A stretch of 6,181 nt of DNA from a virus (Duplodnaviria > Heunggongvirae > Uroviricota > Caudoviricetes). The notes below the pieces were generated by a model. It ran no database searches, had not been told where the DNA came from, and saw only the letters and a list, made by a program, of their open reading frames with translations. Made by a program: the position numbers and the translations under genes. The stretch lies in IMG/VR virus record IMGVR_UViG_2671180543_000005, one strand, 5' to 3'. Positions 1-6,181 of the stretch are shown one piece after another; the stretch's first letter is position 1, and each line of letters starts with the position of its first letter.

Positions 1-43
1 CCTTCTGATGCCATTCTATTTCAGGAAGGAGTGTCCGTTAAAC

Positions 44-238
44 TCAGGCTACCTCACCCGTCCCGGATACCGAGAACGTTTCGTCCAGCAACTGGAGAGA
101 GTTCGACGGTGGCATCATTGCCCATGCCGGAGGCGCTGGAGGTTTCGGCTGAGGATGGCACAGGGCATTTTCCTTTGACGAGCACCCGACCACCATTATC
201 AAGCTTGCGCCGAAGAGCATCATTTTCAGCTTTCGCAT
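44..238 (-). CDS. Rz1: Rz1 outer-membrane spanin lipoprotein (o-spanin)
   Basis: ATG at 238-236 with AAGGAG 8 nt upstream. N-terminal hydrophobic signal ending in a lipobox-like MVVGC. Pro-rich [11 protein letters not shown] stretch typical of lambda-type Rz1. Sits in an alternative frame inside Rz but ends 10 nt past the Rz stop. Confidence 0.8.
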
Positions 239-458
239 CAGCTAACTCCTTCGTGTATTTAGCATCGAGTGCATCAGCATCACGCTGGCGCTGCTGCATG
301 TCAGTAATGGTTGCGTTCGCCAGCTTCAGTTCTCCGGCGTTTTTGTCGCGCTGCTCTTTGTAGGTAATGGCGTTATCACGGTAATGATTAACAGCCCATG
401 ACAGGCAGACGATGATGCAGATAACCAGAGCGGAGATAATCGCGGTGACTCTGCTCAT
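54..458 (-). CDS. Rz: Rz inner-membrane spanin (i-spanin)
   Basis: N-terminus [34 protein letters not shown] matches lambda Rz as I recall it. ATG at 458 overlaps the endolysin stop (ATGA), with GGGGGA about 9 nt upstream. Single N-terminal TM segment followed by a charged helical region. I prefer this start over the track start at 473. C-terminal third diverges from lambda Rz. Confidence 0.85.
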
Positions 459-988
459 TGATCTATCCCCCAACAGGCTAATGCGCTTTCCTGGTCACGA
501 CGAATAACCTGTCCATAGCAGTTATTTGAACGTATGCGGCAATCGCGCCCAACATCTTTTATCCACCAGCGAATCGCCTCGCATGCGCCCTTACGATCAC
601 CGGCATTCAGCCGCTTATAAAACGTCGACGGGAAACACTTACCGGGGCCAATGTTATAGGGGCAAAATGACGCTATACCCGCTTTCTGGGGTTCGGTCAG
701 AGGTACTTTAATATTGCGCTCCACCCATGCCAGCGCCTTATCACGTTCAATAGCGTTAACCTGGTCACATTTTTCCTTCGACAGCTTCATTCCCGGTATG
801 ACAGGCTTACCATCCACCATTGTGGCACCACGACAGATGGTCCATATGCCAGAACCATCACGGTATGCCGTTGTGTGATTACCCTCTTTTTCGTTCAGAA
901 ACTGGTCAAGTATCTGGGGAGCAGACGCGCCTGCGGCAATCAGCGCCAGAACAGCAGCCGACAGGCCGTATTTGATTTTTGCGCTCAT
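455..988 (-). CDS. R: SAR-type endolysin, phage lysozyme (T4-lysozyme / GH24 fold)
   Basis: 177 aa. N-terminal Gly/Ala-rich weakly hydrophobic segment [15 protein letters not shown] (signal-anchor-release type). Catalytic E-x8-D-x5-T motif readable in [16 protein letters not shown]. Resembles Qin-prophage/phage-21-type R lysozymes from memory. Directly precedes Rz with ATGA overlap. Confidence 0.9.
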
Positions 989-1053
989 GGATATTTATCA
1001 GGATTTATCGGCAACAAATAACGAGCCAACTTATATACGCCTTTTAAGATAAG

Positions 1054-1683
1054 TCAGCCCCGGCTGGATCCAGTCATCAGGCTCTTTCTTAAAGGGGGAG
1101 TATTGAAATCACGAAGAAGAGCCTCCCGCACCGCAGCATCCATGTCTGCACCACTGGCAAGTGCTTCAATCTCTGCCGCCACCTGCAAATACCCCATGCA
1201 ACGGCCAATGCGTTTCATAACTCTGGTGTTTTCGTCTTTCAGGCATCTGATAGCGAGATTAATAATTTTCAGGCAGTGATGATGCGATGCCCGGACAGGT
1301 TTTCCGTTCTCATAAACGACGAACTCACCCTCTTCACAGGAAACCCTGAAAGGCCGATGGGGTTCCTGGTCTTTATCCGGTGCAGACGCAATAAAATCAC
1401 TTTTATGCTCTTCCTCTCCGGCACTGTTAACCGTAATGACGTACTCAGGCCGCAGGTAAGCCGCCTCTTTTTCTGACAATGCGGCCGGTAAAAACTTTTC
1501 CTGCAAAAACTTCATAAAAGTCTCGTGAGCGACTTTGTGGCAGTAATCGTAAATCGCCGCATAATGCTCATCGCGGCGTTTGTTTTCATCTTCAGAACTC
1601 ACCAACGCCGACAATTTTTTATTAAGCTCAGTGATTTCATTTTCCAGGTGATTGAATCGCTGATTCATTTCTTCATGCTTCAT
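1054..1683 (-). CDS. hypothetical protein (209 aa) between holin and endolysin; family not recognised
   Basis: Longest ORF in the interval. ATG at 1683-1681 lies 3 nt after the stop of the upstream holin copy, with GGGGAGAG 7-8 nt upstream. Predicted N-terminal coiled-coil-like segment (NQRFNHLENEITELNKKLSALV), acidic linker, and C-terminal region with clustered His/Cys (SHHHCLKIINLAIRCLK, GRCMG). No TM segment seen. Function unknown. Confidence 0.6.
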   Translation of the reverse strand: MKHEEMNQRFNHLENEITELNKKLSALVSSEDENKRRDEHYAAIYDYCHKVAHETFMKFLQEKFLPAALSEKEAAYLRPEYVITVNSAGEEEHKSDFIASAPDKDQEPHRPFRVSCEEGEFVVYENGKPVRASHHHCLKIINLAIRCLKDENTRVMKRIGRCMGYLQVAAEIEALASGADMDAAVREALLRDFNTPPLRKSLMTGSSRG

Positions 1684-1686
1684 TAT

Positions 1687-1872
1687 TTACTCTCCCCGTG
1701 CAGCCTTACGCTTGTCTTCTCTTATTTTGAAATACAGATTCGTCAGATAAGTCAGAAGCCCCAGAAGCAGACTTCCCAGCACACCAATCGCAGCCCACTG
1801 TGATGGCCTGACCTGATCCAACCACTGCAAAAACCAGTAGCCGGCACTGCCGGCGGAGGTGCCGTAGGCAAT
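1687..1872 (-). CDS. class II holin (S21-type pinholin), second diverged copy, 5-prime end missing in the N gap
   Basis: Translation [61 protein letters not shown] differs from the intact holin at 1896-2111 by 3 residues. About 16 nucleotide substitutions across roughly 170 aligned nt by eye. Start codon and first ~10 codons are absent because the sequence runs into N at 1873. Confidence 0.6.
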
Positions 1873-1882
1873 NNNNNNNNNN
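1873..1882. other. run of 10 N: assembly/scaffold gap, true length unknown
   Basis: Ten consecutive n characters. Flanking sequence cannot be joined across 10 nt to give an intact gene on either side. Confidence 0.95.
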
Positions 1883-1895
1883 AATGATGGCGACA

Positions 1896-2111
1896 TTATT
1901 CACCTCTCGCAGCCTTACGCTTGTCTTCTCTGATTTTGAAGTACAGATTTGTCAGATAAGTCAGGAAGCCCAGAACCAGACTCCCCAGTACACCAATCGC
2001 AGCCCACTGTGACGGACTGACCTGATCAAGCCACTGTAAAAACCAGTAGCCAGCACTGCCTGCGGAGGTGCCGTAGGCAATGCCCGTTGAAATTTTGTCC
2101 ATGGATTTCAT
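1896..2111 (-). CDS. S: class II holin / pinholin with dual-start motif (phage 21 S-like)
   Basis: 71 aa, [30 protein letters not shown]..., near-identical to phage 21 S / DLP12 EssD as recalled. Met1 and Met4 give the antiholin/holin dual start. Two predicted TM segments and a charged C-terminus. GGAGGTGA 5 nt upstream of the ATG at 2111. Confidence 0.9.
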
Positions 2112-2271
2112 AGCCTCACCTCCGCAAATAACGGATGGCGTAGTTTTACACTGAGAAATGAAAGGGATTTGAAAAGAAAAAAACGCAAAAGCGGGCGAAA
2201 CGATATATACAGTAAGGAAAGCACTCTATCCAACAAACCACCCACAGTTAATCGGAATAAAAGCAGAGTGC

Positions 2272-2344
2272 TTATGAATGATCGCACGCCCGAAGGTTAG
2301 TATTTCTGCACAGCAATTTTGCAAAAAAAGGCGATCATTCATAA
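2272..2344. repeat. perfect 14-bp inverted repeat (TTATGAATGATCGC / GCGATCATTCATAA) with 45-nt spacer, in the holin leader
   Basis: Arms at 2272-2285 and 2331-2344 are exact reverse complements. Each arm contains a GATC. Confidence 0.7.
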
Positions 2345-2351
2345 CTTAAAC

Positions 2352-2397
2352 GTCTTTCAGTCACTCCGGGATTTCCCATCATCGCAGACTGAAAGAC
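2352..2397. repeat. perfect 11-bp inverted repeat (GTCTTTCAGTC / GACTGAAAGAC) with 24-nt loop, just 3-prime of tRNA-Gly
   Basis: Arms at 2352-2362 and 2387-2397 are exact reverse complements. The repeat lies 7 nt beyond the tRNA-Gly 3-prime end on the transcribed strand. Confidence 0.7.
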
Positions 2398-2403
2398 TCT
2401 GAC

Positions 2404-2478
<75 letters not shown>

Positions 2479-2481
2479 ATA

Positions 2482-2557
<76 letters not shown>

Positions 2558-2559
2558 GC

Positions 2560-2636
2560 TGGCCCACCACCGAGGACTCGAACCTCGCACCGTCAACTTA
2601 GAAGGTTGATGCTCTATCCGGATGAGCTAGTGGTGG
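2560..2636 (-). tRNA. tRNA-Arg (anticodon UCU)
   Basis: 77-nt cloverleaf: acceptor CCACCAC/GUGGUGG, D-arm GCUC...GAGC, anticodon stem UCAAC/GUUGA, loop CUUCUAA, T-arm CGAGG-UUCGAGU-CCUCG, CCA encoded. Reads the rare AGA/AGG codons, like the argN/argO-type tRNAs of lambdoid prophages. Confidence 0.8.
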
Positions 2637-2637
2637 T

Positions 2638-2714
2638 TGGTGGCCCTTGCTGGACTTGAACCAGCGACCTGGCGATTATGAGTCGCTCGCTCTGACCAAC
2701 TGAGCTAAAGGGCC
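2638..2714 (-). tRNA. tRNA with CAU anticodon, ileX/ileZ-like (probably tRNA-Ile2, lysidine-modified; could be annotated tRNA-Met)
   Basis: 77-nt cloverleaf: acceptor GGCCCUU/AAGGGCC, anticodon loop CUCAUAA, T-arm GCUGG-UUCAAGU-CCAGC, CCA encoded. Overall sequence resembles E. coli ileX (tRNA-Ile2) as recalled. Confidence 0.75.
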
Positions 2715-2802
2715 GGAGGCAGAATAATAACCATATGTCATCACATCTGCAAACTCATCTGACCACCAGCGTGTTTAACGTCCTGTACCGTTTTTCAGGC
2801 AT

Positions 2803-2824
2803 AAAAAACCCGCCCGGAGGCGGG
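2803..2824 (-). terminator. intrinsic (Rho-independent) terminator, candidate tR-prime of the Q-dependent late transcript
   Basis: On the minus strand: 6-bp GC stem CCCGCC/GGCGGG (2809-2814 with 2819-2824), 4-nt loop, followed by UUUUUU (plus-strand A run 2803-2808). Lies about 90 nt downstream of the Q stop and just upstream of the tRNAs. Confidence 0.55.
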
Positions 2825-2827
2825 TTT

Positions 2828-2913
2828 AAGCTGTGTGGCGAAGCAACCACTCTTAACAGAATATCCCGTTTTTTACGTACGTAAAATATTTTCTAGAAAG
2901 TCGCCCCTTACCA
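2828..2913 (-). promoter_or_regulatory. expected position of the Q-dependent late promoter (pR-prime) and Q-utilisation site; exact -35/-10 not resolved
   Basis: Placed by synteny only: between the Q stop at 2914 and the terminator hairpin. AT-rich, with weak candidate hexamers (TTTTAC, 17 nt, TATTCT on the minus strand). No confident sigma-70 match by eye. Confidence 0.3.
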
Positions 2914-3294
2914 TCAGGGATGTTCAATATATTTGTCCATTTCTAACCGGACACCCAACATCATCAACATTCCTTCCACCACCCCCTCGGCTTTTTGTAG
3001 CTTCTTTCCTATATAACCATCTGAGCATCCATGCTTCCGCGCCAGCGTCATGAATGTCATCCCAAACACGTAGTAGTCAACCAGCAAGTCATGTAGATCG
3101 TTGTTGTTCCGGTTAAGGCGGGCCATACACCCACATATAACCATCGCGTCATCGTCACAGCATTGCGGGCGGGATTTTACTTTTGAAGGGATTAATCCCT
3201 TAAAACCGGCAGCAATGGACGACCAGGTCACATCCTCATGATTATTAGCCACCCACGCGCCCCAGCGCTCAAGAACCTGCTGAATATCACGCAT
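2914..3294 (-). CDS. Q: late-gene antiterminator Q (phage 82 / DLP12 QuuD-like)
   Basis: From [34 protein letters not shown]... the protein closely matches DLP12 QuuD as recalled. Cys cluster [14 protein letters not shown] fits the Q zinc-binding motif. Start placed at the ATG at 3294; the track start at 3330 is a TTG. The 5-prime end overlaps the ninH stop by 8 nt. Confidence 0.85.
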
Positions 3295-3487
3295 CACTGT
3301 CTTTACCCCTGTCCCATCCACGATGAACAATCAGAACACCATCAACAATGGCGTGCCCTTTGCCCTCTTTATCTTCAGCATATTTTCTTACCGTGGCGCG
3401 ATTACAGTTCAGCATTCGTGAAACTTCGGTCATATTACCTCGTGTCTGGATAAGCAGTTCCGGTATCGTTTGAATTTTGACGCTCAT
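3287..3487 (-). CDS. ninH: NinH-like small DNA-binding protein
   Basis: [58 protein letters not shown] resembles lambda NinH as recalled. ATG at 3487 with GGAGAG 6 nt upstream. Sits immediately upstream of Q, as in lambda. Confidence 0.8.
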
Positions 3488-3581
3488 CAAATACTCTCCG
3501 GTTCGGTGATTTTTATCCCGGGCTTTCCACCAGGGACATAATGATCGCGCACAAGCCAGGGCAAAACAAACTCATGGCGCA

Positions 3582-3839
3582 TCAGCGCAGCGCCTCCTGC
3601 ACCAGTTTTTCAAACTTTCCGACTCTGGTTTCCAGCTCTGCCACACAGTCCACCAGCTCATCTACTGCTTTCTGTGCGCGATGCTTCGCCTGCATCAGTT
3701 CCCGAAGCGCGGGTACCATATCTTTACGGATAGCATCTTTTGTTATGCCCGTTTTTTCGAGTTGTTCAGCATGACGCAGCATTTCCTGCGCGTGTTTACG
3801 CAATTGTTCAGGGGTAAAAGTCATTGTCTGGTTGTTCAA
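3582..3839 (-). CDS. hypothetical small helical protein (80-85 aa), nin-region ORF of unknown function
   Basis: ORF immediately after the helicase. A TTG at 3839 overlaps the helicase stop (TTGA) with GGAG 7 nt upstream. The first ATG is at 3824 (80 aa) with no obvious SD, so the start is ambiguous. Predicted all-helical and highly charged. No family recognised. Confidence 0.5.
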   Translation of the reverse strand: MNNQTMTFTPEQLRKHAQEMLRHAEQLEKTGITKDAIRKDMVPALRELMQAKHRAQKAVDELVDCVAELETRVGKFEKLVQEALR

Positions 3840-5227
3840 AAGAAACGCTCCATCTTACTGCTGTCAGTTCGTTTATTACTGTATCTGCGCGGATTGCCGG
3901 GCTTCATGGGAGTGGAAAGCACCCGTGCACTTTCCTGGTCCACAGGCAGAAAATGTCCGTTATAAAAACGCCGGTAAATCGTTCCCAGAGAACCGTTACG
4001 TTGTTTCGTGATATTGATTTCTGCGATGCCCCTGGCCTGCGTATCCGGGTTGTACACTTCATCCCTGTAAAGCATCAGAATGATGTCTGCATCCGCCTCT
4101 ATTTCTCCGGAATTTTTCAGGTCTGAGTTCATGGGACGTTTATTGGGTCTGGACTCCACACCGCGGGAGAGCTGGCTCAGCGCAATCAACGGAAAACCAC
4201 CGGATTTTGCCAGGCCTTTAAGCCCCTTTGAGATTTCACCCACGGCAAGGTCATGACGCCCCGTGGTTCGGTTTTTTATCAGCCCGAGATAATCAACCAC
4301 CACCAGCGCCGTTTCCGGATATTTAATCAGGTGGTGTTTCGTTGTTGCGCATATCTCATCAATGGCCAGGTTCGCCTGGTCCACCATCCAGATATTGCGC
4401 CCGGTCATCCGCCCCACCCCTTGTGAGAAACGCGTCCAGTCTTCATCTTCAAAGTGAGCCACAGATTTCAGGCGTGATACTGGCATCCCTCCAGCCGCAG
4501 ACACCATACGTTCACCAATCTGGATGTTCGCCATCTCCATGGTGAACAGAAGCACACCATGCCCCTGCTCAGTCACCTTGTCGATGATGTCCAGCGCAAG
4601 TTCGGTTTTCCCCATCGAAGGACGGGCGGCAATGAATACCAGGTCTCCGGGCTCCATACCGCCTGTTTTTGCGTCCAGTTCATCAATACCGGTCATCAAC
4701 GTCCTGGATTTCTCCAGCCCCTGATTCCGGCATTCAACACGCTCAACCACTTCCGGAAGCACATCATCAATATGTACCGGCTGAATGACGCCCTTTCCTG
4801 TCGACAGTGTGACCATCATGTTCTGCGCATCCTTCAGGGCATCTTCAGCTGCTTCACAGGTATGCGCATCACGTAATTTCTGCAGCGCCTCATTCAGTGT
4901 TTTTTCTGCATCGCGCAGTGCGGCATTGCGCCGCAACGCTGCAACATAGTGCTCCAGTGAAGACTTCACCCAGGTTTTACGCCCGGTATCAGTAATCACC
5001 GGGGCAAGTTCCGGCATCTCATTACACAACAGCACGGGGTCAATCACTCCTGAAACACGGGCCTGTCTGCAGATGCCTGTATAGATATCCTGATACGCTC
5101 GTACAGAAAAAACGTCCGCTGGCAGTGTGGCCAGAATATCCATCACTTCAGGATCTGCTCCGCGCAGAAAGAACGCGCCGATGACAGCGCCTTCAAGGTC
5201 ATCGTTACGCCATACTGGAGTTGTCAT
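3836..5227 (-). CDS. DnaB-family replicative DNA helicase (phage-encoded)
   Basis: 463 aa. Walker A AARPSMGKT, Walker B-like VVVDYLGLI, and the DnaB C-terminal block SQLSRGVESRPNKRPMNSDLKNSGEIEADADIILMLYRDEVY. ATG at 5227 overlaps the loader stop (ATGA), with GAGGTG 9 nt upstream. Confidence 0.9.
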   Translation of the reverse strand: MTTPVWRNDDLEGAVIGAFFLRGADPEVMDILATLPADVFSVRAYQDIYTGICRQARVSGVIDPVLLCNEMPELAPVITDTGRKTWVKSSLEHYVAALRRNAALRDAEKTLNEALQKLRDAHTCEAAEDALKDAQNMMVTLSTGKGVIQPVHIDDVLPEVVERVECRNQGLEKSRTLMTGIDELDAKTGGMEPGDLVFIAARPSMGKTELALDIIDKVTEQGHGVLLFTMEMANIQIGERMVSAAGGMPVSRLKSVAHFEDEDWTRFSQGVGRMTGRNIWMVDQANLAIDEICATTKHHLIKYPETALVVVDYLGLIKNRTTGRHDLAVGEISKGLKGLAKSGGFPLIALSQLSRGVESRPNKRPMNSDLKNSGEIEADADIILMLYRDEVYNPDTQARGIAEINITKQRNGSLGTIYRRFYNGHFLPVDQESARVLSTPMKPGNPRRYSNKRTDSSKMERFF

Positions 5228-6102
5228 GCAGCCACACCTCTGATACGAGAACGGTAACTGGGCCAGTTAAACGACAACCAGTTGCGTCCCCCGTCTGTGA
5301 TCCTGTCGGCAATTCGGGGACTGATGAACGCCCACAACTCTTCCGGTGAGAGGTTACTGATCAGAATGGTGGGCAAGATACTTTCGTACCTGGCGTTGAT
5401 AATTTCCTGCAAAATAGCCATTTCAGCCGCGCTGCCAAACTGAACGCCAACTTCGTCGATGATCAGCAAATCCATTGACGCATAACGCTCAATAACTTCA
5501 TCCGCTGTTTTTTCGCTGTCATTCCGCCAGCAATTTTTCACAGCACGGGTAAGGCGCATCACGTCGGTGATCTCCACACTGGCCAGATAGTTACGGATGA
5601 TGTGTTTTGCCATAGCCACAGCCAGATGATTTTTTCCGGTACCACAACTGCCGGTCATAACAAGACTGGTACCGTTCTCCAGCATATCTGGCCAGTTCTC
5701 CGCATAGCGGCGACAGGCCGCAAGATTTCTGGCTGCGCCAGGATTAACCTCCAGATAATTATCAAACTCGCAGTCCCGAAAACGCAGGGCAATTCCGGCG
5801 TTATCAGTCAGCTCTTCCGCCTTGATGGACGACAGCTCCATGGTCAAATCGTTGGCCTCAGCGATTAAGCAGTCAGGGCAGCATGAAATTTCTTCTCTGT
5901 CCTCGCCATTACGATCGCTCCACACCAGTATATGCGTGTGATATTCGCCATGTTTTTCGCAATATCCGCGACCTTCACGCATCAGGCAGGAACGATAAGG
6001 CCATGGCTTTTCGCCCTTCTGAGCAAATGCAATCTCTGCCCGTAACTCATCCATTCGCGCCTGTAGTCTTTTTTGTTGTTCACGCAGGTTAAACGTCATC
6101 AT
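5224..6102 (-). CDS. DnaC-like helicase loader (AAA+ ATPase) with N-terminal Cys/His cluster
   Basis: Walker A TGSCGTGKNHLAVAMA, Walker B DLLIIDEVGVQ, and C-terminal FNWPSYRSRIRG matching the E. coli DnaC C-terminus as recalled. Start placed at the ATG-ATG at 6102 with GAGGTGA 6 nt upstream; the track start at 6171 is a GTG in an open frame. N-terminal region has a C-x3-H...CC-x2-C cluster. Confidence 0.85.
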   Translation of the reverse strand: MMTFNLREQQKRLQARMDELRAEIAFAQKGEKPWPYRSCLMREGRGYCEKHGEYHTHILVWSDRNGEDREEISCCPDCLIAEANDLTMELSSIKAEELTDNAGIALRFRDCEFDNYLEVNPGAARNLAACRRYAENWPDMLENGTSLVMTGSCGTGKNHLAVAMAKHIIRNYLASVEITDVMRLTRAVKNCWRNDSEKTADEVIERYASMDLLIIDEVGVQFGSAAEMAILQEIINARYESILPTILISNLSPEELWAFISPRIADRITDGGRNWLSFNWPSYRSRIRGVAA

Positions 6103-6181
6103 CGCTGTCACCTCAGAATGTCTGAAGTGGCACACTGAATTTGGCCACCTGAACAGAGGTGATATGCTCACCTCAGAACAA

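Follow-up and report, generated by a model that had tools for sequence, protein, structure and literature searches.

The window analysed here, that is, the full stretch of 6,181 nt, covers the replication-to-lysis part of a lambdoid prophage and has all of its genes on the minus strand. An IstB/DnaC-like ATPase (5224-6171) and a DnaB helicase (3836-5227) are followed, towards lower coordinates, by an 85-aa ORF that the gene list places between the helicase and NinH, by NinH itself (3287-3490) and by the antiterminator Q (2914-3330), and between Q and the holin ARAGORN finds an array of four tRNA genes (2404-2714) comprising Gly-TCC, Thr-TGT, Arg-TCT and a tRNA with the anticodon CAT. Beyond the array lie an intact 71-aa holin, a strandless run of ten Ns (1873-1882), a second holin lacking its 5' end (1687-1872), a 209-aa ORF (1054-1683), an endolysin of the phage lysozyme type with 177 aa (455-988; PF00959, 85.3 bits; PHROG 7, endolysin) and an Rz/Rz1 spanin pair (44-473), of which 54-473 matches PF03245 and 44-238 matches PHROG 3198, 'Rz-like spanin'.

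The fourth tRNA (2638-2714, minus strand) is called Met by ARAGORN on account of its CAT anticodon, and RefSeq labels the identical gene tRNA-Ile in related genomes, which would make it a tRNA of the lysidine-modified CAT type. The array is likewise annotated in the single-holin loci of E. coli CFSAN029787 (L001) and E. coli FDAARGOS_944 (L003), and a variant of it, with a tRNA-Lys in place of the tRNA-Arg of the window, is found in the essD-rrrD locus of the latter genome (L002). Between Q and the tRNAs there is furthermore a G+C-rich hairpin on the minus strand (2803-2827, AAACCCGCC-UCCG-GGCGGGUUU) followed by a run of U, and the segment 2790-2840 that contains it folds with -18.9 kcal/mol (z = -3.2 relative to shuffled sequences). 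Such a placement is what would be expected of a tR'-type terminator subject to readthrough by Q; a scan of the window for promoter and terminator consensus sequences returned none above shuffled expectation and missed the hairpin as well.

Both ends of the window appear to be formed by insertion sequences. An IS3-family element contributes its terminal part at positions 1-57 (about 57 bases) and cuts Rz short, the protein being 134 aa where the element follows and 155 aa where it is absent. In finished S. flexneri genomes, transposase ORFs matching HTH_Tnp_1 and rve start 9 bp beyond the window start, and in other strains the same 56 bp adjoin a transposase in a different position and orientation. 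At the other end the last 59 bases (6123-6181) no longer match E. coli CFSAN029787. They are repeated, inverted, at either end of one IMG/VR contig (L242) and adjoin the equivalent of window position 2116 in another (L243), which lacks the holin and lysis genes, and this segment, starting TGAAGTGGCACAC, looks like another IS end. With the IS3-family end on one side and the likely IS end on the other, the whole window would be a prophage remnant bounded by IS ends.

A preliminary description of this DNA had reported a 10-N gap between an intact holin with an endolysin stub (1883-2111) and a truncated holin (1687-1872), and these elements are indeed present, the gap being the sole N run of the window. 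Read on the minus strand from 2111 to 1896, the right copy encodes an intact protein of 71 aa ending in KAARGE, which matches Pfam PF04971, 'Bacteriophage P21 holin S', with 121.5 bits at a cut-off of 26 and over profile positions 1-63 of 64, and which is matched by PHROG holin families too. Its translation directly reveals the Met1-Lys-Ser-Met4 dual-start motif, a length of about 70 aa and two hydrophobic segments. The stop codon overlaps an ATG (TAATG), from which ATGTCGCCATCATT (1896 to 1883) reads M-S-P-S before the Ns, and the left copy begins mid-gene around codon 11, as had likewise been described, since 1872 to 1687 encodes Ile11 to the stop. The two copies are diverged as claimed, but the estimate of about 16 substitutions over about 170 nt was too low, an alignment giving 21 differences in 186 nt (88.7% identity), which result in three amino-acid differences (R32S, L46V and L49F). 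What the preliminary description missed is that the 14-nt stub and the ten Ns add up to 24 positions, so that the MSPS frame continues in frame into the left copy, and the ORF listing indeed gives a 69-aa ORF that spans the gap (MSPSXXXXIAYG...).

Finished genomes hold just one holin at this place. When positions 1560-2260 were compared with 5,426 complete E. coli genomes by megablast and records covering at least 80% of the query were kept, eight finished records passed, and in these both halves of the query fall on one span of 430-492 bp with a single holin. The chromosome of CFSAN029787 is collinear with the window over 58-1872 (99.2% identity) and 1909-6122 (99.5%), and the interval from its 209-aa ORF to its tRNAs contains a single holin. 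S. flexneri chromosomes were found by way of the exact 209-aa protein, ten being listed and 13 more similar places lying beyond these, and include the finished chromosomes of 2457T (AE014073.1) and M90T (CM001474.1). All ten listed genomes carry DnaB, the 85-aa ORF, NinH, Q, a single 71-aa holin, the 209-aa ORF and the lysozyme, the holin being directly upstream of the 209-aa ORF in every case. Positions 1-1872 are 100.000% identical to most of the listed finished S. flexneri genomes, 2457T among them, and 1909-4892 shows 14 mismatches and two gaps in all. Differences from CFSAN029787 concentrate in 1909-2061, with three mismatches across 2062-5260, and judging from this position map all 14 mismatches and both gaps relative to S. 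flexneri would fall in 1909-2061 as well. Taken together, these identities and the position map mean that the window corresponds almost perfectly to an S. flexneri-type prophage remnant, apart from some 180 bp beside the gap.

In the following we designate the holin allele proper to this locus A and the essD-type allele B. Positions 1896-2061, which are of type B, are about 89% identical to the holin that occupies the locus in finished genomes, whereas joining 2111-2082 to 1872-1687, with 1873-2081 deleted, yields a 71-aa holin only 1 nt off the single holin of CFSAN029787 and FDAARGOS_944. The earlier preference for a scaffold join over a proven tandem duplication thus agrees with the presence of one holin in every finished genome with this prophage. 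The other option that had been offered, a true paralogous cassette that had diverged, is not supported.

The 3' two-thirds of the right copy (1896-2061) is foreign to the locus. Window positions 1883-2182 are 100% identical to an essD-rrrD junction that lies in another prophage, namely L002 of FDAARGOS_944, in which rrrD follows a class II holin, the TAATG overlap is the same and RrrD begins MSPSLRKAV. Since this is how RrrD begins, the reading of MSPS in the preliminary description as the start of a phage-21-type endolysin proves sound, and the stub (1883-1896), with which the right contig ends, is the first 14 nt of an rrrD or R21-type endolysin gene. In agreement with this, 25 of the best 25 E. 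coli matches lie under features annotated as class II holin and rrrD, and the exact 28-nt junction recurs in IMG/VR, where almost all of the more than 120 contigs with it read on into rrrD.

From the gap up to 2182 the window matches the B locus exactly, and from 2062 on it matches the A locus. The overlap between the two, in which the switch of locus lies, is a 121-bp exact repeat (2062-2182, minus strand) common to both loci, made up of 71 nt upstream of the holin and its first 50 nt. The left contig, which carries the A allele from codon 11 to the stop and ends at 1872, overlaps this repeat by 20 nt, since 1853-1872 equals 2062-2081. A comparison of the two loci within FDAARGOS_944 gives 95% identity over 824 bp, including identical stretches of 121, 136, 70 and 58 bp, and the four-tRNA array sits in a repeat of about 0.8 kb that is 95% identical between prophages. 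That one genome can hold both loci is evident from FDAARGOS_944, which carries L002 as well as L003. In E. coli a holin-tRNA query (1883-2900) has a median of three matching places per genome and a maximum of 13. The suggestion that two lambdoid lysis regions had been joined is therefore correct in so far as a second prophage-type locus contributes, but in finished genomes both flanks (1-1872 and 2062-6122) line up with a single prophage, and the contribution of the second locus amounts to about 180 bp (1883-2061), that is, a holin 3' end and the 14-nt stub only.

Three IMG/VR contigs (L011 at 912-2276, L035 and L091) show what may lie just beyond the stub. In these, rrrD is cut after codon 6 (MSPSLR and a stop) by an IS66-family element with the end GTAAGCGCCCC, and the inserted sequence comprises an ORF matching HTH_Tnp_1, an ORF matching TnpB_IS66 and the start of an IS66 transposase. 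All three hold the same exact 179-mer as the window, then MSPSLR with its stop and then GTAAGCG... (TnpB_IS66, 86.5 bits). The right contig may have ended at 1883 because a multi-copy insertion sequence three bases further on would bring a contig to an end; the contigs with the stub::IS66 junction have no genome identifier in common with the Shigella-type drafts.

Other drafts break at the same site. In the IMG/VR record UViG_2700989169_000005, positions 1-1857 equal window 1-1856, and after a break of ten positions 1868-2375 equals window 1883-2390, so that its left contig ends 16 nt earlier than that of the window. As the gap has ten positions in both scaffolds despite this shift, the Ns are a placeholder whose length is uninformative, and the view that they stand for something other than ten real bases is thereby borne out. 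A further draft, UViG_2667527998_000003, has a first stretch that ends at the same base as the left contig of the window and resumes 2,495 nt later at the equivalent of 2772, and UViG_2667527994_000005, a sister draft with a neighbouring IMG genome identifier, is a gap-free contig of 5,978 nt with one A-type holin.

These observations bear on the idea that the tandem is real, in which case an essD-type holin would be followed within some ten real bases by a fusion of the rrrD start to the second holin, encoding some 69 aa (MSPS....IAYGTS...). Across the ten Ns, stub and left copy share a reading frame, and a difference of 11% between the copies speaks against a trivial read duplication. An in-frame arrangement is however expected by chance in one case out of three, and a ten-position gap combined with the 16-nt shorter left contig of the second draft would break the frame. 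As the shift gives a different frame across the gap, the in-frame ORF is a coincidence, and we rejected it as a real gene. The 3' end of the right copy and the stub furthermore match a normal essD-rrrD junction exactly, and two adjacent holins are found in no finished genome and no gap-free contig searched. A pattern anchored on the holin end and requiring conserved holin interior 30-90 nt further on gave 0 matches in the GTDB representative genomes and IMG/VR, whereas the within-gene single-holin control for this pattern matched 107 IMG/VR contigs, and tblastn on these 107 contigs revealed no adjacent second holin. One IMG/VR record (UViG_2648501245_000003; L081, 3909-3998) has a partial holin match covering residues 1-30 with 90% identity, but this lies about 8.5 kb from a full-length holin on the same contig and is not a tandem. 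If the tandem were true, the locus would possess two diverged pinholin genes, one of them with a novel N-terminus devoid of the antiholin Lys2 as a result of rrrD codons being fused to codon 11, but we consider a real tandem very improbable.

A different possibility is that the right contig is true and that the Q-tRNA module really leads into an essD-type holin and a truncated rrrD, for example because two prophage remnants had recombined, or undergone gene conversion, via their shared repeat, in which case there would be no tandem and the join to the left contig would be wrong. Two loci with 95% identity over 824 bp and long exact runs make a good recombination substrate, prophages visibly differ in how holin, downstream-gene and Q modules are combined, and the hybrid path, by which we mean a B-type holin 3' end with A-type sequence upstream, is present over window 1883-2390 in two drafts. 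The fact that two independent drafts have the same right-contig start (1883) and the same hybrid path could in principle reflect real structure. However, the hybrid path is absent from the 5,426 finished E. coli genomes, where the best match has 98.6% identity and begins at window 1909 only, and an exact 171-mer spanning B-specific and A-specific positions was found in just one other IMG/VR draft, which is also gapped. Neither a tandem holin nor the hybrid path is thus found in gap-free sequence in any collection searched. In addition, the listed finished S. flexneri genomes link the exact 209-aa ORF to the DnaB-Q-tRNA segment through one A-type holin, with 100% identity to either side of it, the two pieces joined by the scaffolder are neighbours in homologous position in those same genomes, and the sister draft runs through contiguously with an A-type holin. 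Since the two pieces are adjacent in this way in all finished genomes, a true right contig with a wrong join is disfavored, and we regard it as unlikely.

We infer a B locus in the source genome, and an exact look-up of the B-type holin protein, which occurs in 17,232 blocks of the collection searched, returned only E. coli-type loci among the matches listed when a second locus in S. flexneri was sought. This leaves some room for the B-type sequence to stem from contamination or a mixed culture, the library then containing another strain of E. coli or Shigella. Contamination is nevertheless unlikely since the identical B-type piece occurs in two independent drafts, and it is furthermore in poor agreement with the facts that several holin modules per genome are common in E. 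coli, as the query above revealed, and that both loci occur together in single finished genomes. We rank it as the least probable explanation considered.

The apparent holin pair is most probably a short-read assembly artefact that arose at a repeat common to two prophage remnants, and we assign this reading a probability of about 0.88. It builds on the single holin of finished genomes, the foreign identity of 1883-2061, the shared repeat and the shift of the contig end from one draft to another. The locus proper would then consist of one S21-type holin (2111-2082 followed by 1872-1687), the 209-aa ORF, the lysozyme and Rz/Rz1, and the source genome would hold a second prophage remnant elsewhere with an essD-type holin and the start of rrrD. 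The two loci would have in common a near-identical module from the tRNAs to the holin, including the 121-bp exact repeat over the holin start, and the right contig, carrying DnaB, Q and the tRNAs, would have passed through this repeat and left it on the wrong branch, thus acquiring the essD-type 3' end and 14 nt of rrrD before stopping at 1883, possibly at a multi-copy IS66-family insertion three bases further on. The true A-type continuation would have ended up in a separate contig starting 20 nt inside the repeat. On this account the scaffolder joined true neighbours, and as the contigs could not be overlapped it would have set the minimum gap of ten Ns, thereby creating a false tandem pair.

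Velvet writes any gap smaller than 10 bp as ten Ns. A literature search on the '10 N' convention turned up only unrelated uses. The arrangement closely resembles the contig breaks that repeats cause in short-read scaffolds and that are filled with a minimal N placeholder, in that there is a fixed minimal N run with flanks collinear with finished genomes, that the sequence at the side of the gap derives from another copy of a multi-copy element, and that the contig end varies between drafts, and we see no essential difference between such a break and the present case.

With respect to known lysis systems, the right copy resembles the holins of phage 21 (S21-R21-Rz/Rz1) and of the K-12 prophage DLP12 (essD-rrrD-rzpD), which pair a pinholin with a signal-anchor-release endolysin, in belonging to PF04971 and in having 71 aa and an M-K-S-M dual start, and its stop codon overlaps an RrrD-type start (TAATG) exactly as in essD-rrrD junctions. 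The S21 holin acts by pinhole formation and membrane depolarisation, which releases the SAR endolysin. In contrast to phage 21 and DLP12, the window has just 14 nt of rrrD, and in the cassette that truly belongs here holin and endolysin are separated by a 209-aa ORF, the endolysin being a different lysozyme of 177 aa. The latter possesses a hydrophobic N-terminal stretch and the spacing E-x8-D-x5-T in its translation, and on these grounds would fit a signal-anchor-release endolysin paired with a pinholin.

The true cassette also resembles the Qin type, essQ-ydfR-rrrQ (holin, DUF1327 protein, lysozyme), which likewise comprises a holin, an extra ORF, a 177-aa PF00959 lysozyme and Rz/Rz1. The slot of the extra ORF holds a YdfR/DUF1327 gene in many genomes and other prophages, whereas the 209-aa ORF found here, directly downstream of the true holin, has no Pfam match, DUF1327 included, and matches only PHROG families of unknown function (PHROG 1085, E 1e-73). 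Its protein is exactly conserved across many S. flexneri genomes.

The genes of the window are unremarkable representatives of the S21 holin, lysozyme and Rz/Rz1 families in an IS-eroded lambdoid remnant of Shigella or E. coli, and their biology is textbook. The value of the finding is that of a data-quality flag, since automated annotation would here produce a false 'holin' call, truncated or of 69 aa, together with an apparent duplication, and prophage-typing or pangenome pipelines could count an extra holin from the scaffold.
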